Shown piece by piece: positions 1-55,217 of a stretch of DNA of 64,000 nucleotides. The DNA is from Rhizodiscina lignyota (lineage: Eukaryota): NCBI GenBank assembly GCA_010015805.1, contig ML978131.1, positions 372,001 to 436,000 on the forward strand. The letters run 5' to 3'. Below the pieces are notes generated by a model that ran no database searches, had not been told where the DNA came from, and was given only the letters and a program-made list of their open reading frames with translations. Made by a program: the position numbers and the translations under genes. Positions within the stretch are counted from its first letter, which is position 1; every line of letters starts with the position of its first letter.

Positions 1-1845
1 CTTCGTACTTTTAACGCCGGTCTTCCGAAAACGCCACCGTGACGGTGAAAGAGTGGGCTCAGGTAAGTGGCGTCCGGGGAGCAAGTCAGACCTTGCCAGC
101 GCCTTGACATTTGATCATGCCACACGAGTCAAACTCGGCGGATGGCTGTTTTCGAGAATCTCCGTGTTTCCATCGCAACATTCTGATGCCGCCGCCAGTA
201 TCGTGATATAGATTCACCGCAGCAAGGGTTCCCTTCATCACGGTGCGGGACGTTGTCCAGTACCAGGGCTTGGCCTAGCACGTCTTAAGTGCCGCCCTAT
301 TAAGGCGATGAGCTGTCACACGATGGTCAGCTTGCCGATCGACAAATTCAAGCGTTTGGCGTTTGGCGTTTGTGCATGATGTTGAGATGTTGCTGCATTT
401 GTCGTCTGGAGTTGCACTTATCGTCTGGACAGATTGCAGAAAGCGGTGAATTACGTCGTCACTTGGCAGCGGCACACCCGCAACTGGATTCCATTCGGGA
501 AGCACTCTGGAGACACTCAGGAGTCGTATCAGTCATGAAGACTTGGGCCCATAATAGTGACTTTGGTACGTATCCTTCACAGGCTAGGGACGCGTCTCGC
601 GTCTCTTGAGAACGACGCTAAACATCTTGGTATGGAGAGCAGTTCAAGAATGCGATACGGAGCACTGTGAGTGGCTGCTTCACTGTCGGATAAAAGAACG
701 AGAGTGGTCAGGAAATCTCCATTGAGCATCGAATTAGGTCTGGTTGTTTGCCGCTAATCTGAGGGGATAAGGTTCGGCACGAGAATGTCGTAGGGACGCG
801 GAAGCACGGGAGCGTACCAGTGTAGAGCGTAAGCCAGTAATTGGTCCGAGAGGATCGTGAGCTGCTCCTTCAGGAGGCGGTAATCAGCGGGGAGAGAGGC
901 CCGAAGTGGTGACAAGTTGATCAAAGTGGTAGGGTAGATGGTCCGGGCTGAGGTGGTGGGCATCCCGTGTGCGTACGAACGAGCGGCAGTAACGTTTGAC
1001 TGAGGCTATCAAAAAATATCTCGTACATCCTTATGGCTGACCACGAGACTGCGATCGGCAAAGATCGTCGAAATCATAGGTGCCCGATATACTGCCGCCG
1101 TAGTAATGGCCAGCACATCTTTTTGGGGCCGCTCGAGCAGGAAGCCCTCGGTCTCGACGCTGTCTTGCATGGCGCCATGTGCAGAGATGCGGGCGACTGT
1201 ACGGTACTGACTCTGTATCTCTGAGAACAAACAGCGAGTTTCATCTTTAAGTACTCAAAGCACAGCAGACTTATGATGAGTTGTATGAGGCGCGAAGCTG
1301 TACAGCAATCTATCCGCATGATGGCCTGACGGTAGAAACCGCACAAATCGGTGTGACCGGTTCCTGAATTGTGTGCACCAGTAGGGTGGTCGAATTATTT
1401 TGATTCGCTATTCGCTCCAGTACCTTGCGTAGCAGTGACGATGGGTGTAGGGGGAATTGATAATACACGCTGCCTGAGGAAGGTGGTTGGGCCTTCGTTG
1501 GGCGAGTCGTGAAAGTGAGGCGGGCAGCAATGCGGATGATTGACGAGGGCATCCATGGCCTTGGGAGAATGCTGCACGCCATGGTGCCTATTGCTGCAGG
1601 GAAACCGCCGCTGTGAGCCTCGTGGGTTCGTTTTGCTACAGACGCCCGTGAGAGAGCTCTGAGAATATTTAATCCCAAAGATGGTCGAGTGTGCACGAGT
1701 ACCTTCGATGATCATCGGGGACGACTAGACTTTTGACTTCTTCGGACCGGTTGAGCTGTGTCCTAAAGCTCTCATCTGATCCATCAGAATAGAGAAGCTT
1801 CTTTTAACTTTTGTTTAAAGCTTGGACAATTCTTTGAGTCATAAA

Positions 1846-2243
1846 ATGGCAGACCCGAATACGTACTTCCTGCCTGGCTACGGCATCTCGCGATCGGTCA
1901 TCCAGAGCGAAATACGTTACTTCTGCGGTCCAGATGCGATCGTGAGGCCCTTTACGCACAAGGTAATACAGTTGATCATGAGCTTTTAAGGAAAGATGTA
2001 CTCAGCCTCGAACAGGGTCGCGATGGTTTCCTTGTCACCAGCACCGCGCCGCCTTTGACCGAGGTTCGTCCTTGATCTGCCTTGGAAATGGGTTTGATGG
2101 GCGCTGATATTAGCCAGCAACAAATCCAAGATCTAAAAATCGCCTCCAAGGTCTTCGAAGAACGACAAGCCAGTCAAAACGGCAACGCTGGATCGGTGAA
2201 CAAGCCCATCGCAATGGGAAGCCACACCCGCCGCCGACACTGA
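1846..2243 (+). CDS. Small 96-aa spliced protein resembling the fungal RfeG-like family (absent from ORF track)
   Basis: Exons 1846-1962, 2016-2063 and 2118-2243 joined by two GT-AG introns give MADPNTYFLPGYGISRSVIQSEIRYFCGPDAIVRPFTHK-GRDGFLVTSTAPPLTE-QQIQDLKIASKVFEE...RRRH*. The YFLPGYGISR..I..FCGPDA.VRP..GRDGFL pattern matches the RfeG-like family as recalled. Confidence 0.8.
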
Positions 2244-2771
2244 CGAAAATCCATTCTGAAATCCCCGATTTAATGCTGGCATTGGAGTTGGCATTCCATG
2301 ATCGTTCAGCGCTGGCGTACGGTGTTTTTCTGGTGTTCGAGTATTGGGTGGCGTTTGAAAGATTTCATTAGGCGGAGAGCTCTGGGAAAAATGAATGCGC
2401 CATGATGTACGATGTTCGAAAGCACGTGATTTGGGCGGGACAGCTTTTTTATAATTCTGGCGGCTTCCTTCTTACCTAGCGCCCTTCTCTTTCACGTCCG
2501 TCTTATACGTCTTGGACGTCAAGGCTGCGTTGCGATGTCTGACGGCGACGACATCTCCCTAGATGTCGTTGACGATCACGACTTTGTAAAAGTCATGACA
2601 CTCACTCGAATTTGTCTCACATCTACGAAAAGAGAATGCATCGGGATCGTCCAGAGCAATGTGTTTCCATTATTAGATGGAGCCTTATATGGTTGAATTG
2701 CGTCTTCCACTCTTGTTCACTCATGACTGCCAGAGCGCACAACTCCAAGAATGAAAATTGATCTCAGAAAA

Positions 2772-4866
2772 TTATAGGCGGCACTCCAGTGCTCCATTCC
2801 TCCAATCATGCGTCGTCAGGTTGGGATACATGTAGGCCGTTATCTCCAGAAGCTCAGTCAATGGCGTCGGGATCCCGTGTGCTGGGACGACACTGGCGAG
2901 CAATCCATTAGTGCTGCGACAGCATCACCTCTTGCAGAGTTGGGCGTAAACGTACAGAGCACTTTTGCTGAGGCCATCATACAGCATTTGATCCAACCAC
3001 TGCCTCGCGAACCCGATGTCGAACTGTATCGCGTCCGTTCCGGGAGACCAAGCGTCTGCATTGAAGACAGCCACGCCGTCATTTTTATCCGGACACGTGG
3101 AAGTGACCATCATGTATGACCAATCAGAAGCATGGACGGCCTCTTCCCTCCACATGAACCATGCTTGCATATTTCGGTCTTTGTGAACATACGGTCGTTC
3201 CTCTCTATGGCAAGTCCGATTAGCGCCCAACCACCCACGCGAGCTATCAGGGATTGCGAACGTACGTGAAGATCACGAACTCGGCGCCAGGAATGCTGGA
3301 CCAATATCTCGTTGCCATCTCAGGAATGATCAACTTTGCTCCGAGCTTTACATACTTAGCCGCTTCGCCTGCATGGTCTCTATGATGGTGTGAGGGCTGA
3401 GGCAATGAGGCCACGGTGTCAGCGTTGGGCTCGAACTGCATTTCTTTTTGACCTTACCCAAACATGTGTAATCGGCTTGTTGATGTTCTCCTGAATCCAT
3501 TCAATGACTTGTGAACTTTGGTGTTCCGGCGCATCCGCAACAATTACACCATCCTCGAACTCCATGACCAACTGAGAGTATGCCGAATTCTCAAACATCA
3601 CATTCCAGAGTTTGGGCACGTTACTCAGAAAACGAGTTGCTGACAGATTCCCTAGAGGTTCTGTGTCGAATCCCCATATCATGTTTGAAAAGCCTTCCAG
3701 AATCTCTGCGTGAGAGAGGTCGGGGTCCGCCTTCGGCGCGACTTTGGGTGCATCGCTCTCGTTTGCTGGCAGGCCAGTAAAGAAATCGGAATCGAATTCT
3801 GGATTCATATCAATGTGTTCGACAAGGAAATCTTCGAGGACCGCATCACTACCGAGCTCGTTATCGTAGACAGACTGAAAGCGCCGAGGAATCTTGACGC
3901 CATCAACGATTGTATAATTGGATACCTGGAGATCGTATGTGCAAGGCCCGTAAACGGGATGAGTTTGATAGGAGCGGATAACGTGCGGGAGCCCCGTCGT
4001 AGGGTCGAAGACGACAGTCAGGTTCAACTTCGCGTCGGTCACTATGCTTCGGATCAGTTTTATACTACCGCTAATACGAAAATCAATGTATACCCGCAGG
4101 AAGTTGGATGCCTTTCCGCAATTGGACGAGTGATGATGAAGCAGCATTATTGGACTTGATCTGCCCCGCGTTAGCCTCAACGTGTACCTACGAACGGCTA
4201 TGAAAACTCACCATTGTCATCAACAACGGCGACATCATCGTCTCCAATTGCACGAGATACTCTGCAAGAGCGGCTATTTCCCTCATTGTCAGCCTCACCC
4301 CGAGGATGGCAACCCAAGCGAAGGACCTACCATCTGTATAGCCCGCAGTGTATGTTGGCTCCATATATATCAGATTATTCCCTCGAACATAACATGCGAA
4401 TCCATTTTCACCACTCTTTACCACCAAGGAATAGTCAATTGGATCAAGGTTGCCCTTTCCCCATATCCAATAATCTGAAGGGACAAAATGTCGATCGATA
4501 CGTTGCTCCAGCGCCGTGCCCCCAAAGGAGAATGAGATGTTCTGGTGACCTTCAATGGAAACGAATTGATCCGCCTTGATGAGATCGTAGTTCTGCATAA
4601 GCGTTTGAGTGCGGTAGACGCTGACTTAAGTTAGGCAAGGAAGAGACTTGATATCTTTCACGATGTATTTTGACGTACCTGGGCGAGCGATAAGTGATGC
4701 CCTTGACCGTATTCAGAACCTTCTCTCCACCAAGCGCCCCCAGTGACCGCTCAATAAGTTCCTCAGCTGACGACACATTGCTCAAAGACGGAGGGGATAG
4801 TGAGGTGGCAACGCTCGCTCCTGAAGCCCACGATAATAGGGATAGTAGACAGAGCAGGTAGGACAT
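2772..4866 (-). CDS. Secreted metallo-beta-lactamase-fold hydrolase, multi-exon
   Basis: Signal peptide MSYLLCLLSLLSWASGA. ORF-track fragments at 4552-4866, 4188-4598, 3419-4180, 3247-3441 and 2925-3230 join via introns. Motifs THVWPSHHHRDH (HxHxDH, 3373-3390), VHASD, FNAD and last-exon VVPAHG. Stop TAA at 2772-2774. Confidence 0.8.
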
Positions 4867-5696
4867 ATTTGAGATTAATGCTACACAAAAGGCAGAGGTT
4901 TCGATTAAGGACTATGATTGAGACCGGGAGGAGTACGATACTCTTTCATACTGTACCCTTTATATTCCGCGGTTTTCATCCTCGATCCTTGGAGAGTCGG
5001 TAAATTGCTCAGCCTTGTCATCTACGTCAATGCCTATTAATTCAGTATCTTTGGAGTCTTGTGCGGAGAGGGACGTATGCCATCTTCCGGCAAGGCTACG
5101 ATGCCAAAGACGGATCCGGGTCAGGAAGGCTTGCTGGCTTGTTCACGCGGGAGGCCGCTCTCTACGTACCGCCGCGCAACATGCATTACACCGCGTAAGA
5201 ACCTAAGGACACCTTCTCTTTGGACTTCAGCGACAATCTGAAGACTGAAGTAAGTCGGATTATGCTTGTAACGGCAAGGCGGTCGATGGAAGACAGGAGG
5301 CTGTGAGCATTCGGAAGGTGAAATGCAGATCAGCGGAAGACCGAAAATCCCGCGATGCCCCTTTTTGCATGCCAAACGCGCAAAACTCTACGAAACGAGC
5401 TAGGAGCGACGACAGACAATGTTGACGATACTCCGTACAGCGGTACGAGTATGTTCCGCACTATTCAGATGTCGAACTACATCGGGGCTGAGGCTCCTAA
5501 AATATTTTGGAATATCCAAATTACTTGGAAGCATAAAGAGTGAGGATAATACCAAAGACGAACGATCTAAATAGCAGAAATTGACCGGGACAAATTGATC
5601 AGTTTAAATTAACTGATTCATTATTCTTGTACTCTCCTTCGTTCTATATAGCTCACTCACTATACATTCTCCCACAACCCTCCAGAACCAGCAATC

Positions 5697-25923: not shown

Positions 25924-26929
25924 TCAGCTACCAGTGGGGGCAGAACGCTGCATTCTTCGGTCCTCCATTAATTGTTTGAATACGTCCATGGACTGGGGAT
26001 GATTGAACATCATGGCGTTATTTTCGGCAGTGTTGCCCGTAATTTCAAGGTGATCGATGTGCCTTGACAGGTCATCTCCGATCGCTTCATTGACCATAAG
26101 TGATTGGTGTTTTGCCAAGTTGCGGGTGATGATGCGCGTCAAGTGCTTCGGAGAACCACCTGAGCTGCTTGACAGTGTCCTCGATAGTTCCGAACCCTCT
26201 GTGGAAAGGCAGTCATCACTTGATAATGACAGGACATCGAGATCGCTCGGTAGCACTTTCTCGTCACCTACTATTAAGTAAGCTCTTCCTCGTCGTTTGT
26301 CTCATATTAGCAAGCTTGCCTTGACTTGACAGATCTTTAACTCGCGAATCAATCTTGAGTTCACTCCCCTGGCCCTTGCCTGACATCAGCACAAGCCTCC
26401 GATCGATTCGACGTATTACTTTTCTGTTTTCTCTAACTCCGTGTTCAATGCTACGTGTCATAGCCACATGCTCGACATGTATGTCCATCCGAAGGTCGTC
26501 CTTAACACGTCTGAGCTCGCCCATGATATTCGTAAGGTCCTTCTGGTCGTTTGAACCATGTATCAATTGGTGTGAGAACTGACGAAGGGAGGAGCTTTTG
26601 TCGCCCGGATGTACCCGTTTAAGCCAACCAAGCAGCTTGTGCTCAGTAGATTCGAGTTTTTCCAACGTCGCGACGACGCTCGGCACTGTCTGTAGTGCTT
26701 CCTCATCTTTAATGACTTGGATAATTGATCTGATGCTCTTGAGCTCTTCTAAATGACTCTCAAGCAGTTCCGCAAGCTCCTTCTGACGTTCATAAGCTCG
26801 TCGAAGGCGCTTGATTAGCTCGATTGCCGCCTCAAGCAGTTGGACAACTGCTGAGACCGTTCCAAGTACTTCGGCCTAACCACCAAGTCAGCAATGCTCG
26901 GACGAAAGGAGTCGCGGAGAAATGACCAT
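25924..26929 (-). CDS. HeLo-like/SesA-like N-terminal helical domain protein with C-terminal two-repeat amyloid-like motif (300 aa)
   Basis: ATG-only exon 26927-26929, intron 26876-26926, exon 26320-26875 (AEVLGTVSAVVQLLEAAIELIKRLRRAYERQKEL...), GC-AG intron 26268-26319, exon 25924-26267 with repeats ITRNLAKHQSLMVNEAIG and ITGNTAENNAMMFNHPQS. All splices keep frame. Confidence 0.75.
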
Positions 26930-27467
26930 TAACTACCAGAGCAGAGGGTTTCCCTTAAGTGTTCAATGTCCTGAGATAGGTATTACAGAGGAGGGGTTCG
27001 TTCGACCTGAACCGCGACTCTGCCGTCTAACTACGCGATCCGCTCCTCCTCTTGTACTGATTGAGTCATCCTTGAGCCTCAATCGATTTACTCCAATTAT
27101 CTTCAGACACATATTGATCACTTTGCGCATGGAAACCTGCAGCTGGAAAGCAGGGAGGGCTTATGCGCTTATCATCTCATTGGAGTCGAACGGGCTCGGC
27201 TGGCGAAACTTCAAACCGCAAACCCCAGTCACGAGCTTGACCGGTTGCCCCAGGCATCAAATCGAGTATAGCACCGTCGGGCGTCCATGAATGAGATGCG
27301 ATCATGCGGGGGCGCAGCACGAGCTGCGCGACGGACTACATGAAGTGCCCTTAAGACCGTTACTCGGACTTCAGTTCGCATGTTTTGATGCGCGTCATCC
27401 CTATCCTTCAACCCCACGCGTTCTCCTGAGGTTGCTTTCGGAAATGCATCTACGTTCGCTCTGAACG

Positions 27468-28255
27468 ATGACCACATTGCCTTTGGGTCTTTCGCTGCCG
27501 TTTTCAATTGCGACTCCAGTCGAAAAGGGCGACAAAACCAAACCTGTCGTATCGTCAGCGGTTTGCAGAAACAAGGCGACAGAGAACGCTCAACAGTTTA
27601 ACGCTCCAGTGGGCGGGAAGCATACCTATAAAGTCAGAGCGGTAACCAATCAGTATGTTCCTGGGAGTCCGGGACTTCCTTTTCTTCGTCAAAGAGCTCT
27701 TTTGAGCTAAGCCGAGTCGCAGCTACCACATCTCAGGCGACATTTACTTGTATCGTCCTGTGAACACGCGTGCGGATTCCAGTTCATTATATGTTGATAC
27801 ACCATATCCGTACCCAGTCATTTCAAATACGACGAAAGTCATAGCTGCCGAGGTTGTTCACAAGTATCATTATGGATCAATTGAAATAGTGAATAGCTGA
27901 TCCTGGATAGATCAAAGATACTCAAACGCCAACTGCTCGGAAGCAGTACGTGCGATTAGAGGGCTCCAAGGGCGAGTGGGGGACAGTCTGCGCTCAAGCC
28001 TCCCCAGACGCCGAAACTAATTGGATCTCTGGGAGGATAGTCAGACGACATGGTCTCAAAACTTGCCAGAATAAACAATCGAAGACGATCTCGTATCAGG
28101 GAAGACGTATAACATCAAACACCCAAGTAAAGGCCCTCGTCCTATTCGACAGATCTTGCAATGGGCCTTGTCGACATCGGTTTTACATTGTCGAGCATGT
28201 GGGATTCGACGTTCTTTTCGGGGATTTTAAAGAAATGAAAACCGCTACCTGCTAA
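27468..28255 (+). CDS. Spliced protein (about 219 aa) with N-terminal amyloid-like motif and C-terminal degenerate retropepsin-like domain
   Basis: Exon 27468-27652, GTATGT intron 27653-27722, exon 27723-27852, intron 27853-27910 (weak GTTGTT donor), exon 27911-28255. Contains VCRNKATENAQQFNAPVG and AQASPDAETNWIS...RFYIVEHVGFDVLFG. Confidence 0.6.
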
Positions 28256-28808
28256 TAAAATTTTGAGGCGTCCAGCGATTCGGAGGAGGAGTTTCACGAG
28301 GTACAGCAATAGCTCGCGCGGTGAAGGGACAACAGGATCTAGCTTTCGGCGCCGGTTCATGGTCATCGTGAAGAACTTCACAGGTTTTCAAATGCGTCTC
28401 TTAGGCGCAAAGACGGTCGCTGGTTTCTTTTGGTAGATATTTTCCGAGAGGAAGCACGGTGTCAGGTTGTCTGGATATACGGAGGAACCAACTGCTGTGC
28501 AACCCGAATGTGTAACCTGGCAACACTGTAACGGAACGGAATGTCCTAATAACATTTAGATTTAAACAAATGATTTTGATTGATATCTTATTATGTTAGT
28601 GATTCATCCGCTCTCTCTGAAGCTGGGACAAGCTCATTACGAACATTACTGTATCATTATTTCGCCTTTCAAAAACCGAGAAGCACGAGGCCACGAGGAT
28701 CGAGGCTCGAGCTAACAACAATGCGCACGAGCCAACAGACCTGATTTTTCTATAGATCTACTCAGTACTCAGCTTGCAAGTAAGCTTAAGCCAAGTGGCC
28801 TTATACAA

Positions 28809-29497
28809 TCAAGCGCTTGTGTGCCAAGATTTCAAGACTCTCCCATTATCCTCGACTTTATCGCCGTCTTCGCCGTTTTCCTCAGCAGGCAGCGCCCTCT
28901 TCATCCCCTTCCACTTCTCATTCTCGTTATAAGAGCACTCAGGGCCTGTGTTGTTTATTCGACAATTACCGCAGACGCCGTCAAAGCGTCCGGGAATGCG
29001 AATGCAGTCCTGATCACACTATAAGAAAAACAAATCAAAATTTAGATAAGTTGACATACTATATATATACGATAACGTGGGTCTACACGCGCTTTAGCAC
29101 ACCCAACACATTCCCTATCCATGGTCTTACCACTATAGTTAAGTATCAGTGATATATTAGTATAGTAGTAAGTTAAAGAAATATACCGTGACTGGATTAG
29201 TAGCGATTCTAGCTTTCGCGTCTGATCCTGGGTATGCCTCGGGATGGCCTTGCCTTCCTGGATATGGACAAGCTCGCCCTTTTGAGCCAGTAAAGTCTCC
29301 CATTCTGGTCTGATGAAGAAGCCCGCCTTTCGCAACTATCGTATTATCAGTAGCCGGTCTCGAAAATGTATGATTCTGCCATTTAGCCATACATTATCAC
29401 CCCGAACGTCATACGTCTTCTGGAGCCCATCAGCAGCCTTCAGCCATCTAATCCTATATAATGGCTGAATAAGACCTTTCTTCGGTGCATCTGCCAT
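28809..29497 (-). CDS. DUF3716-like Cys-rich protein (178 aa, 4 exons)
   Basis: Exons 29393-29497, 29187-29335, 29060-29132 and 28809-29018 give LESLLIQSRGKTMDRECVGC...CDQDCIRIPGRFDGVCGNCRINNTGPECSY, matching the recalled DUF3716 pattern (Q.RG...CxxC...C....G...G.CxNC......CS). The last intron is only 41 nt. Confidence 0.7.
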
Positions 29498-29891
29498 GTT
29501 CATGTTATTAGCACCCGATCGGCTTCGGTGTCCTCGGCATCTTTGGTGTCCAGCGTGAACGCCGTAGCAATGCAAGGCGGCGTGGATGGAGCGGAGAGGA
29601 GGATGTTGAGCTCTGGATCTGAGAGAGATATGCCCGCAATCAAGTTTTGTGCTAGTTAAGATCTCACCGGTCGATCCGAAACATAAATTGGGTTTAGGCA
29701 CTTCTTAGCGCGTCCGAGGTGTCGGAAGTTTAACTTGCCGCACCATCGAACTTGACTTCGAAGCATATCGGCTTCTAATGACATCTCGCCAATGCACTCA
29801 ATTCCGGTTGTCGTCCGATTAATCGTCGTTCCCGGCTCCTGCGATCATGCGTGACATGTAAGATGTCTCCAAGGCCGAGGATTAGTCCCCA

Positions 29892-31379
29892 ATGAGCCTC
29901 CATCATCCATTCTCACCTCACCAAACGCCTCTACCTCAGTCTAATAATCCGGTGATGTCAGAGGTCTATAGAATAGCGGAAAGGCTGGTCCAGAGATTTC
30001 CAGATAAGGCCATCGAACTTCTTGCCCATCACTGCGACGTCAACACTTTAGCGCAATATCTCCAAGAGGCTTGCGACAGGAGACCGCTGGACTTTCATAC
30101 GGTACTGAGCTCAGGAGGAAGTGACTCAAGTTCTCAATCATCGTATTCTCGAACGCCGCGGGATGCTCTTCAACACCGCCAATCTGTCGTGCCTGATAGA
30201 CGCTACAGTCCTACACCATCCTCGCAGGCCTCATCACCAATTCTTACTTCGCCGTCGAGTCAACAGCATCCGCTTACCAAAGGTGTTGAATTTGTAGATG
30301 CACTCGATTCTGACCCAGAACCGAAGAGATTGAGTATGAGAAGCGATGCTCAGTCCTACAGTTTAATTAGTGAGGACACCGTCCGCGAAAGGTTGCACCT
30401 AAAGGTAGAAGACATTGGAAGTCCGCGATCGGTCCCATATAATGATGCACAGTTAGAGATCTTTCAGACCGTCTCGCTCACCTGGAAGAAGCTGAACTCG
30501 TGGCGGACGCATGGAGCTACGTGCTTTCTAGTTCAGTCAGACCTGCTAGACGTCGACGTTATTGTCGGAAAGTTGAGAGCTGAAGACCTCATAAGACAAA
30601 CAGGTAACCGTGCGTATCCTGAACTATATGCCAAAAGTACTGAGACTTCCAAAGGCTGACCTTGCATAGCTTTTGCGGCGCAATCTCCTCAACAGGGCAG
30701 TCGTGGGGTTTTCCATCCGCAGCCACAAAAAGCTAGCAACCAAGGGCCGAGAGGCGAGGATTTGTCAATTGCGTACTCGTCTATTGAAGATTTCCCCGAT
30801 GCGACCCCACCACATGTGATGGTTAGGCAAGTTTCTCAGCGGTCATCGACAAATAGAACTAGCAACGTTCTCAGAGAGAGACAGCATCCTATTGTCACAG
30901 ATAGGACGAGGACATCGAATATGCCGCAGTCGTCAAAGTCGTCCAAGATTCCGCGGCGACAAAATTCTCCTGCTAGAAGTTCTGGATCCGCTTCGTCTCG
31001 TGTATCCGGCCGCCATCCGCATGGCCACTCTTCCATGGCTCCTTCTCACACCCAAAGGACTTCACAACCGGAATCAGCTCGGGTCAGGATTGTATGGGAA
31101 GGCATTCAAGTTACAGCGAGATTTAGGCTCAGCGCCTCAGGGGAAGCCTTTCTTGAAGATTTAAACCAAGCGATTGGCCCAATGACTCGTGTAGATCGAC
31201 ACGTGCACTACGTTCGGTTCTCTACAGAGAAGGGAGAGAGTGTGACGAACTCCTGCGAAGTAAATCTGTTGGAAGACGACGTGGCTCTTGATTGGGAAGA
31301 TGCTGTGGAATGGATAAAATCTAAAATGGAAATCGCGCCTCGGCTCTATGCCATGATCGAGCAACGCGATGCGGGTTGA
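29892..31379 (+). CDS. Hypothetical 473-aa protein with degenerate retropepsin-like domain and C-terminal alpha/beta (possibly ubiquitin/PB1-like) domain
   Basis: The 255-aa and 205-aa ORFs join in frame via intron 30604-30669 (GTAACC...CTGAC...TAG). Central MRSDAQSYSLISED...VSLTW...CFLVQSDLLDVDVIVG follows the retropepsin pattern without DTG. Confidence 0.7.
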
Positions 31380-53108: not shown

Positions 53109-55217
53109 TTATATGATGGATATCTCAGTCTTTGTTTCGTTTTGAAAACATTCATTTCTCCCCCTCTCGAAGAGCCCAATCCTCCTGTATATATTGTTTT
53201 GGCCATTGACCTCGCTCGGCAGCAGAAGTAGCCCCTCCACTCCATCATCCCCTTCTTTGCCCTGAGTAATTGCCGCGCATAAGACCACAACAACGTTGTG
53301 GTCTCCAGTCTCGTCATATGTACCGCACATATTGCGAGAATCAGTTCCGTACGCAGCCTCTGGCTCATCACCAAGGTCCACATCGGGATATTTTGCTATG
53401 AAGTCCTCGATATGTCTTGTCGAAGCCTCCGCAATAGTGATTACCTCTTCATTATATGGGAGCGTTGTTCTGGATCCTACAGAGGCGGATACAGGAAACA
53501 AGAATATATTAGAAGTCGAAGGATTGAACCAGGTCCTCTAACGGCAGCTCTCACTTTCAGCCTTGCCGACAATACTTCTCCAAACGGGTTGAGCTCGGGA
53601 GATCTCAATGTTGTCGAACAATCTATGATATCGCAGATAACGTCGGGAGCAGCTTCGTATTCATCGTCGAAAGAAAAATTGAAATGAATGACCCCTCCCT
53701 CGAGACTCGCCCAGGACCAAGAAGGCGCCCTGTATCTAACTGGCCTGTAAAATATGAAGGGTTCGTTCTCGGGCTGTGTTCTGTGCCAGCGCGAAGTGTG
53801 CCATGTGAGTTGTCGCGCGAGACCGTATTGCCACAGTCCGGCGAAGTAGCCGGGCCCGAGGGCGCGAGAAAACGAAGGATGAGAGGCAATTCCGGCCAGC
53901 GCGTTCAACTTGTCGCGGTCAACTTGTCGCGTTCAAGGCTCGCAAAGCGGAGAGAGTATGCCGTCACGAGGCGCAGCCAACAGCTCAAGGCTTTGTCTCT
54001 CCGAACGCGCGCTTCTTCTTCACTGAGAAGCAGAGAGTGCAGATTTAGGCTGTACTTGTCATTATCATCGTTATACCCCGCGTCGAGGTCGTGTGGAAAG
54101 TAGAGAGAGTCGCCAAAGTTTCTTGTACCGGCATGGCATCTCCACATCATGGTGTGGGTGGTGAATGTGAGCGTCCGCTGTGCCAGCAGCTGCTCTTGCA
54201 TCGTCCAGGCTCTCTTCGCGAGGGGCTCGAGCCACTCGTCGTAGCATGCGGCATCTAGTTCATTGACAGACATCGTGCCGAAAACGCCGGGTCGAATCCG
54301 GACAGGTATCGTGTGGAAAGGCTCTGAGTGGACACGGGGGTGGAGGAATCCTTCGAAGACGCTCTTCGCGGATGCAGCGACTATTGTCAAGGCTGATGAA
54401 GCGTAGTTATGTCTCATGAATGCAATTTCCCTAATTTTGTCCTCTTCAGAATCCTGGATGGTGCACAGGGCGTCAATCCACAAGTACGGGATTGACAAGT
54501 TGCGCGTGGTCGAGATGGCGTGACGGATGGTGGGCGGCAGAGTCAATGGATCTAGCTCTTCCATGAATTTAGCATAATTGGACCGAGTGAGAGTCGGAAA
54601 GGGCGATTTCCCCCAACAGTACGAGAGCGTTGCGTAAACGCCACGCGAGTTCCCAGATTCCACGAGTCGTGGATGTTGTCGTCCCGGTGGGCAGACCTCG
54701 ATGACTCTCGTGGGTAGAATAGAGTCTCGGCGTGAAGCGCTACAGTACTCGTGCCCCTTACACTCCTCCGACCATGCCCTAAGCTGCATCCTTGCTGCCT
54801 CGCTGTCGACGTCGGTCTGCAAGGGCCTCGCAGTCACATACCCTGAGGCGCTTCGTCTGATGCCGTCAAGGCGTGGAGAAAAAGCGCAGCCCCTCCGATC
54901 CACTTCCCCGTGGCAGAGTGGCACGAGATGCTCAGATAGAAGACGTTGCCGCCCCTAGGCGTGCAAGAATCGATCAGGACCGGGGCAAGATACGTAGTAA
55001 CCCTATCTTCTGGCATCCACGAGTCGCAACTAAAGCTTCTTATGTAGGCACACCAGGTGCAGTCAGCGTCTTTGATCTCGCTGTTGGCAGCGACTGTTTC
55101 GATGCTTCTGTGCTTGTGGCCATCACGGAGGTGATCGCAAGTGCAGCACTTCTCAAAACTCTCGGTGTTGAAGAAATCGCGCCAGCATCTGGCACAGACG
55201 AGGTCCCGGGGGCTCAT
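53109..55217 (-). pseudogene. HET-domain (heterokaryon incompatibility) gene disrupted by three frameshifts
   Basis: LPTRVIEV, YATLSYCWG, YLWIDALCTIQDSEEDK, LAKRAWTMQEQLLA, YFAGLW and YRAPSWSWAS motifs lie across four frames. Frameshifts at about 54850, about 53905-53931 (14-bp duplication) and about 53530. Confidence 0.85.

Follow-up and report, generated by a model that had tools for sequence, protein, structure and literature searches.

Can a hypothetical fungal protein with two short repeats at its C-terminus be recognised as an effector of amyloid signalling, and does its neighbourhood hold a partner for it? Prion-like signal transduction in immunity has its model in fungal amyloid signalling, and to our knowledge only a handful of its motif families have been described, namely HRAM (HET-s-related amyloid motif), sigma, PP (pseudo-palindrome), PUASM and GDQN. 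The question arose from a 64,000-nt stretch of Rhizodiscina lignyota DNA (GenBank assembly GCA_010015805.1, contig ML978131.1, positions 372,001 to 436,000; hereafter the window, in whose coordinates all positions are given unless stated otherwise). A gene on its minus strand, spanning 25924-26929, encodes an N-terminal helical bundle, a Ser-rich linker and a 60-residue tail of two pseudo-repeats, here called rungs, and an earlier note made from the letters alone had proposed it as a regulated cell-death executor or prion. We found that this protein of about 300 residues, called the effector below, belongs to a conserved Pezizomycotina family and that a third copy of the rung lies in the divergent neighbouring frame. 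The evidence tips the balance, if only slightly, towards an amyloid-signalling effector with a divergent single-rung partner.

A conserved two-rung tail

The tail is made up as follows.

26077..26136, minus strand: rung 1 (RIITRNLAKHQSLMVNEAIG), 22.1 bits with a single-rung hidden Markov model (HMM), AlphaFold2 strands
26050..26076, minus strand: nine-residue inter-rung connector, from conservation
25990..26049, minus strand: rung 2 (LEITGNTAENNAMMFNHPQS), 24.5 bits with the rung HMM, AlphaFold2 strands
25948..25989, minus strand: C-terminal amphipathic helix with the family pattern F-x-x-L-L, from AlphaFold2 and conservation

Judged from this protein by itself, the repeat is modest, since the best internal self-match of the tail exon (offset 29, score 33) was met by 16 of 500 shuffles of the 113-aa exon and by one of 500 shuffles of the last 75 aa. 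At the level of the family the two-fold repeat is unambiguous and far beyond chance: when offsets 8-39 were compared in 61 family tails, 29 was the sole offset with a positive profile self-match (+11.0, and +17.7 for the best 18 columns). Across the same tails the first Asn was kept in 95% (rung 1) and 97% (rung 2), the second Asn in 79% and 82%, and the Q/M position in 91% and 97%. The consensus of rung 1 is R-I-I-x-x-N-x-[A/T]-x-D-x-A-L-Q-I-N-G-P-V-G and that of rung 2 is L-x-I-x-x-N-x-A-x-G-x-S-x-Q-V-N-[Y/H]-P-x-S, with the common pattern phi-x-phi-x-x-N-x-[A/T]-x-x-x-[A/S]-x-[Q/M]-phi-N (phi, hydrophobic). The connector follows the consensus GEDxW, with W present in 92% of the tails. The family thus bears out what the earlier note had read from a single copy, namely two pseudo-repeats 29 aa apart, Asn aligned at two positions and, as a possibility, a distinct motif variant; the conserved two-rung module matched no known Pfam prion motif, and the tail of this protein matched no Pfam family at E≤10.

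A third rung in the divergent neighbouring frame

Upstream of the effector, the following features lead away from it on the opposite strand.

26930..27467: divergent intergenic region, 538 nt between two ATGs, from the sequence
27468..27710, plus strand: unannotated 80-codon frame with a single rung (ATG at 27468, TAA at 27708-27710)
27561..27614, plus strand: the single rung, r0 (VCRNKATENAQQFNAPVG), about 30 codons after the ATG, 21.2 bits with the rung HMM

The single-rung HMM, which has 20 columns and was built from both rungs of the 61 family tails, was run over the six-frame segments of the window (1934 segments, 103,846 residues). It matched r0 with 21.2 bits (E 9.8e-6), and the runner-up outside the effector scored 4.3 bits. 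None of 100 controls reached the score of r0, the best values being 10.1 bits in 60 dinucleotide-preserving resamplings of the window and 11.7 bits in 40 residue shuffles. r0 was also matched by a 63-column tail HMM (E 7.8e-5), through the rung 1 part only, and by a whole-family HMM built without this protein (E 0.001). Its residues follow the motif wherever the rung is conserved (N, A, E, A, Q, F, N, A, P, V and G). Unlike rung 1 of the effector, r0 retains the consensus A-P-V-G.

With rungs 1 and 2, r0 shares 5 and 7 of 19 amino acids and 24 and 27 of 57 bases, respectively, while rungs 1 and 2 share 6 of 19 amino acids and 27 of 57 bases with each other. r0 is therefore not a recent copy, because it is as diverged from the two effector rungs as those are from one another. 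As expected of a motif-sharing gene pair, the rung is found at the C-terminus of the effector and about 30 codons into the adjacent divergent frame. The codon-usage score of the r0 frame was 0.088 per codon, and those of the effector exons were 0.087 and 0.083; true frames averaged 0.19 and wrong frames -0.04, with r0 falling between the two.

The exact r0 frame was absent from the protein collection, and an ESM Atlas search with it gave no usable match. In five metagenome homologue loci no third rung was found within their short flanks. Extension of the r0 frame by splicing reached only a 114-aa frame, across introns of 212-323 nt, and was rejected as unsupported. A decayed duplicate of the whole gene was rejected as well: the family HMM detected no remnant of the N-terminal domain, and the tail HMM aligned to r0 by rung 1 only.

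Predicted structure and stacking of the tail

AlphaFold2 modelled the 80-residue tail alone (60 aligned sequences) with a predicted local distance difference test (pLDDT) score of 90.8 and a predicted template modelling (pTM) score of 0.72. A strand pattern occurs twice, at residues 10-14, 17-18, 23-25 and 29, and then at 39-43, 46-47, 52-54 and 58, and a helix follows rung 2 at residues 60-75 of the tail (258-273 of the whole protein). The tail kept a pLDDT above 90 in the model of the whole protein.

Stacking was modelled by ESMFold2 with three copies of the 80-aa tail, the alignment not being used. The interaction prediction score from aligned errors (ipSAE) was 0.49, 0.40 and 0.49, compared to 0.02 for the best of three controls, with a contact agreement of at least 79% and a partner pLDDT of at least 65 in the three-copy runs. 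In the calibration of this score, which is based on two copies while the tail model has three, no single chain attained the mark (0 of 23 from microbes and 0 of 30 from eukaryotes), and 21 of 30 microbial and 17 of 29 eukaryotic same-chain pairs did. The confident contacts between copies lie 29 residues apart (45-16, 42-13, 43-14, 47-18, 53-24 and 55-26), so that in the model the second rung of a copy rests on the first rung of the copy after it, much as coils follow each other in an uninterrupted solenoid. The model supports binding, and the tail is predicted to self-stack head-to-tail and in register.

When the tail model was compared to known structures by Foldseek, the HET-s(218-289) fibril came out on top and the HELLF fibril 6eka sixth, although these matches (E 4-5, TM-scores 0.21-0.34) were not significant. 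The TM-score to 2rnm was 0.21, and the match to 6eka had E 5.2. On these models the tail would be two-rung, like HET-s, but without the same geometry.

N-terminal domain

In the AlphaFold2 model of the whole protein (146 aligned sequences, mean pLDDT 84.4) residues 1-185 are helical. The Pfam family SesA (PF17107) aligned to residues 7-121 over profile positions 1-115 of 122, with 16.2 bits (E 0.012), under the Pfam gathering threshold of 26.3 bits, and PigL_N/HeLo-like (PF17111) gave 11.7 bits (E 0.17), under its threshold of 27.2 bits. Among 36 full-length family members, SesA matched four at E≤0.1 (best E 4.8e-5), and PigL_N likewise matched four (best E 0.0015). The nearest ESM Atlas clusters were of the PigL_N/SesA kind, with PF17111 in 94-100% of their members, and a comparison by structure added an MLKL_N cluster. 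The top structural matches were the executioner domains of MLKL, at 8-10% identity, and an unrelated Cbl bundle tied with them. Foldseek gave no match at E≤1e-3 for the N-terminal comparison, Protein Data Bank sequence searches returned designed helical proteins only or none, and NCBIfam gave no relevant match.

Taken together, these results support a remote member of the HeLo-like/SesA/MLKL-type bundle superfamily that falls outside the current Pfam models. The hydrophobic N-terminal helix, helical body and Ser-rich linker described by the earlier note are all present in the translation, and its assignment of the domain as HeLo-like/SesA-like is supported as a remote relationship: the near full-length SesA alignment and the PigL_N/SesA clusters speak for it, whereas SesA and PF17111 stay below their thresholds and Pfam HeLo was not matched.

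Gene structure

The coding parts of the effector gene were assigned as listed here.

26927..26929, minus strand: exon 1, the start codon ATG alone, from the sequence and homologue N-termini
26876..26926, minus strand: intron 1, 51 nt, GTCATT...CTGAC...TTAG, from the sequence
26320..26875, minus strand: exon 2, four-helix-bundle domain (MLKL/HeLo-like/SesA-like) and start of the linker
26801-26875, minus strand: hydrophobic N-terminal helix, within exon 2
26268..26319, minus strand: candidate intron 2, 52 nt, AAG|GCAAGC...TAG (GC-AG), best family-HMM score
25924..26267, minus strand: exon 3, Ser-rich linker, two-rung tail, C-terminal helix and TGA, from the translation and family HMM positions 182-282
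25924-25926, minus strand: stop codon TGA of the effector

Exon 2 opens with GCC GAA GTA CTT GGA (AEVLG...) at 26875, and its translation (26321-26875) is 185 aa long and begins AEVLGTVSAVVQLLEAAIELIKRL. An in-frame TAG at 26876-26878 lies immediately before it, so that this frame has no upstream start unless it is spliced. The closest homologue begins with MAEVLG and many others with MAE or MAD. Two metagenome homologues have a similar layout: locus L004 reads ATG|GTAGAGT...ACTAAT...CCAG|GCC GAG GTA CTC, a TAA standing in frame immediately ahead of the acceptor, and locus L002 has a first exon of 6 nt at the same place. An exon consisting of the ATG alone, as the earlier note had proposed, is thus supported by comparison of sequences, through the homologue N-termini and the L004 layout.

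For intron 2, all 26 frame-compatible GT/GC..AG candidates were scored with the family HMM built without this protein. The GC-AG intron 26319-26268 ranked first with 292.0 bits, against 287.3 bits for a GT-AG alternative of 58 nt (26325-26268), and this difference of a few bits does not discriminate between a GC and a GT donor. Under the GC-AG splice, exon 2 covers positions 2-179 of the family HMM and exon 3 covers 182-282, which makes them nearly contiguous, and the translation of the tail exon (25927-26265) is 113 aa long, including the Ser-rich linker and the tail. The GC-AG intron of the earlier note is therefore the best-scoring candidate of the 26 but unproven, its GT-AG rival not being separable from it, while the attachment of the tail to the bundle is preserved under every one of them.

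The deposited protein at this locus is 'hypothetical protein NA57DRAFT_44289, partial [Rhizodiscina lignyota]' (KAF2095504.1, 278 aa, 5'-partial). It is without the Met-Ala start and its splice reads KDL|DDCLS; its intron (26330-26219, 112 nt, GT-AG) scored 275.6 bits, rank 22 of 26, and excises about 20 residues that align to the family HMM from position 182 or so onward. The gene is accordingly not wholly hidden from annotation, as had been suggested, but it is partial there and spliced differently. The locus is an example of genes of this kind that stay incomplete in public annotation when the start codon forms an exon by itself and a splice is doubtful.

Protein family

A HMMER search covering 1.84 billion representative proteins returned 312 relatives at E≤1e-3, of which 137 were at E≤1e-10 and 23 at E≤1e-30, and many of them, with lengths of 275-330 aa, can be aligned from one end to the other. 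They include members from Dothideomycetes (Bathelium, Trypethelium, Pyrenophora and Bipolaris), Sordariomycetes (Fusarium poae and Magnaporthiopsis) and Eurotiomycetes (Aspergillus and Penicillium), labelled as hypothetical, 'Fungal N-terminal domain-containing' or 'NACHT-NTPase and P-loop NTPases N-terminal domain-containing' proteins. Exactly two rungs were counted in 66 of 170 stored family proteins and one detectable rung in 14, with a rung-to-rung spacing of 25-34 residues (mode 29). A word-based homologue search returned only the protein itself. The tail motif (residues 205-270) was found in none of 140 long candidate proteins at E≤10, a search of low power in which a single 20-residue rung cannot reach significance.

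Two longer proteins were observed in the family. One of 651 aa from Pyrenophora teres (P0097), with nine members listed for its 90% cluster, has TPR_12 repeats after the bundle and tail, with one rung detectable, and one of 998 aa from Bipolaris oryzae (P0107) has about 700 residues without a Pfam family after the bundle and tail; these may be real fusions or merged gene models. On metagenome contig L001 the family member, at 4427-5401 of that contig, is intronless, and its upstream neighbour (661-2670, plus strand) encodes a ubiquitin-like domain (ULD_2) and ankyrin repeats without a nucleotide-binding oligomerization domain (NOD).

Surroundings of the gene pair

No adjacent gene with a NOD and ANK, TPR or WD repeats was found, the plus-strand frames at 27468-31376 being without a Pfam match at E≤1, noise aside. 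Between 27.7 and 29.9 kb there is no frame longer than 122 aa in any reading frame. The region 27700-29900 has the lowest GC content of the window, 0.44-0.47. Indices of repeat-induced point mutation (RIP) and repeats are unremarkable at 26.9-30 kb.

Farther along the plus strand, at 29886-31379, two open frames (257 and 239 aa) share a reading frame, with one stop codon between them where there is probably a short intron. Their product is Ser-rich and has no Pfam family apart from a weak SOG2 match (E 0.018). A gene with a HET (heterokaryon incompatibility) domain (Pfam HET, E 5.7e-25) is located at 53908-54954 on the minus strand, about 27 kb from the effector.

Interpretation and alternatives

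By analogy with known systems, the protein is probably an effector of the amyloid-signalling kind with a new motif variant. As in NWD2/HET-S, the single rung of the partner would nucleate in-register stacking of the two effector rungs, and repeat 2 of one molecule would then settle on repeat 1 of the next to give a beta-solenoid-like polymer. Conversion of the tail would free the N-terminal bundle, whose first helix would insert into membranes and kill the cell. It is from this analogy that the tail would act as an amyloid or prion, that the bundle would attack membranes and cause cell death, and that the partner would itself have an activator. The third rung in the neighbouring divergent frame agrees with what the amyloid-signalling model predicts. 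All the computational tests that could be made pointed the way the earlier note had proposed.

Several observations weigh against this reading. The effector itself departs from its family, with S in the connector where the family keeps W, and with E/A in rung 1 where the family has G/P. The r0 frame lacks annotation, and the support for it as a gene is weak; none of 207 candidates among proteins longer than 140 aa was a homologue of it at E≤10, and its extension would need introns of 212-323 nt, which are unusual beside the effector's own introns of 51-58 nt. No NACHT or NB-ARC domain was detected in 31 larger frames scanned across the 64-kb window, and another 10 frames of the plus strand (27468-29656), that of r0 not counted, gave none either. 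The metagenome homologue L001 is without a third rung within 4.4 kb upstream. Finally, the tail has features of a stable fold, namely a connector conserved in length and sequence, a conserved helix after rung 2, and a confident AlphaFold2 model of the monomer.

These last features lead to the alternative that survives best, which we nevertheless consider unlikely. Here the tail would be a natively folded, capped two-coil beta module that holds the bundle in check or binds a partner, with no amyloid or prion involved, and r0 would be a non-functional relic or unrelated to signalling. Because the connector and the C-terminal helix are conserved in the family, they look like parts of a stable fold, unlike the flexible loop of HET-s and the variable, non-conserved loops of 6-18 residues in HET-s-related motifs, as excerpts of PMC4518210 describe them. 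The finding of no NOD-like receptor (NLR) in the scanned window frames is consistent with such a module, as is the lack of a rung at the N-terminus in any of the 170 stored family proteins. On the side of amyloid signalling stand the predicted in-register stacking and the position of r0.

A second alternative, which seems to us distinctly unlikely, keeps the amyloid-signalling effector but takes r0 as the dead stump of a lost NLR gene, so that the effector would be an orphan or be served by an unlinked receptor. Downstream of r0, a stretch of 2.2 kb contains neither a Pfam domain nor a frame exceeding 122 aa, the r0 frame is without annotation and without a match among proteins longer than 140 aa or by exact look-up, and for known motifs it is suspected that signals also pass between genes that are not neighbours, according to excerpts of PMC9815663. 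However, r0 keeps all consensus positions despite its divergence, which suggests continuing selection; its frame is intact from ATG to stop and resembles the effector in codon usage, and neither a RIP signature nor repeats are seen in the DNA around it.

An improbable but more far-reaching version of the amyloid-signalling reading is that the two-coil solenoid with a 29-residue period forms a new motif family on SesA/HeLo-like bundles, whose trigger or governor, in at least this genome, is the 80-residue single-rung mini-protein and not an NLR. If true, this would be a minimal two-gene templating switch, in which a small protein nucleates or caps the effector polymer. That the protein is no death effector at all, but a generic PigL_N-type helical protein that serves some other role and whose tail is a family-specific appendage, is very improbable: PF17111 is now named after a pigment-cluster protein, all family members are deposited as hypothetical proteins and the four-helix-bundle likeness does not discriminate, as the tie of Cbl with MLKL demonstrates, yet it is characteristic of SesA and HeLo-like relatives that they form the N-terminus of NLRs or carry prion motifs (excerpts of PMC4518210), and the bundle, the two rungs and the neighbouring single rung match an amyloid-signalling system point for point.

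For the amyloid-signalling reading, the family adds, across three Pezizomycotina classes, a motif whose rungs have another geometry and whose connector is conserved, which makes it a new test case for the determinants of stacking and for cross-seeding barriers. The occurrence of a single rung without an NLR body means that non-NLR nucleators or caps may exist, or that effectors may outlive their receptors.

Comparison with known amyloid-signalling systems

The published motifs are taken here as excerpts of the cited papers describe them. As far as our searches reach, the motif appears to be undescribed, and by sequence the rung fits none of HET-s, HRAM, sigma, PP, PUASM and GDQN, because its Asn residues are 10 apart, no Gly is common to both rungs and the connector is conserved. 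None of four tail substrings occurred in the supplementary data files of PMC4518210 (two files) or PMC9815663 (11 files), although other supplements of PMC9815663 may list the motif.

HRAM has an invariant Gly at position 19 and hydrophobic positions 5, 8, 10, 16 and 18 of a 21-residue unit, and HRAM2-5 are carried by HeLo-like/sesA-type proteins of up to 310 aa with two C-terminal repeats (PMC4518210). The effector resembles HRAM and HELLF proteins in having two imperfect repeats within its last 80 residues and in being a HeLo-related protein that does not exceed 310 aa. It differs in the pattern of Gly-19 and hydrophobic positions, which its rungs do not follow when HRAM is compared by its text description and not by logos. 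The rung is 20 residues long, and rung 1 has G in 47% and 79% at two columns, where rung 2 has Y/H (G in 5%) and S.

The sigma motif comprises about 40 residues with three GxGxQFNxx or GGTQNINT units (PMC3321046). The SesA/SesB/HET-eN sigma locus of Nectria haematococca is similar to ours in that SesA, the closest Pfam family here, carries a C-terminal prion-like motif common to the neighbouring gene (PMC3321046). The sigma pattern was absent from the tail sequence, and the two 20-residue rungs have only the Q-phi-N core in common with it. The PP motif is a pseudo-palindrome of about 20 residues centred on the Q of GxQxG (PMC5485727), and no GxQxG occurs anywhere in the tail. PUASM reads FxGxGxQxxGxGxF (PMC9815663) and GDQN reads NxxxGxQYxxxGxGDQNxVSxxxxQxN (PMC12261475). 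From the MLKL executioner, the plant CC and CC-R domains and the fungal HELLP protein, the effector would differ in being activated by a stacking tail and not by a pseudokinase or a NOD.

The system nearest in organisation is HET-s/NWD2. HET-s has 21-residue repeats with a 15-residue flexible loop between them (PMC5485727), in contrast to the period of 29 with a conserved nine-residue connector found here; the two Asn of a rung are 17 residues apart in HET-s and 10 here, and no glycine is conserved in both repeats of our family. Pfam HET-s_218-289 and HeLo did not match the effector, and PF11558 gave no match on the tail at E≤10. The r0 neighbour also differs from NWD2 in showing no NOD or repeat domain. 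The likeness lies in the plan of the two systems: in both effectors an N-terminal helical domain, putatively a death domain in our case, precedes two pseudo-repeats stacking as two rungs with Asn ladders, the stacking being predicted here. In nwd2/het-S a single repeat copy stands at the N-terminus of the neighbouring divergent gene (PMC3321046, PMC5485727), an effector-receptor layout also described in PMC4518210, and r0 likewise provides a single copy of the rung in the divergent frame adjoining the effector.

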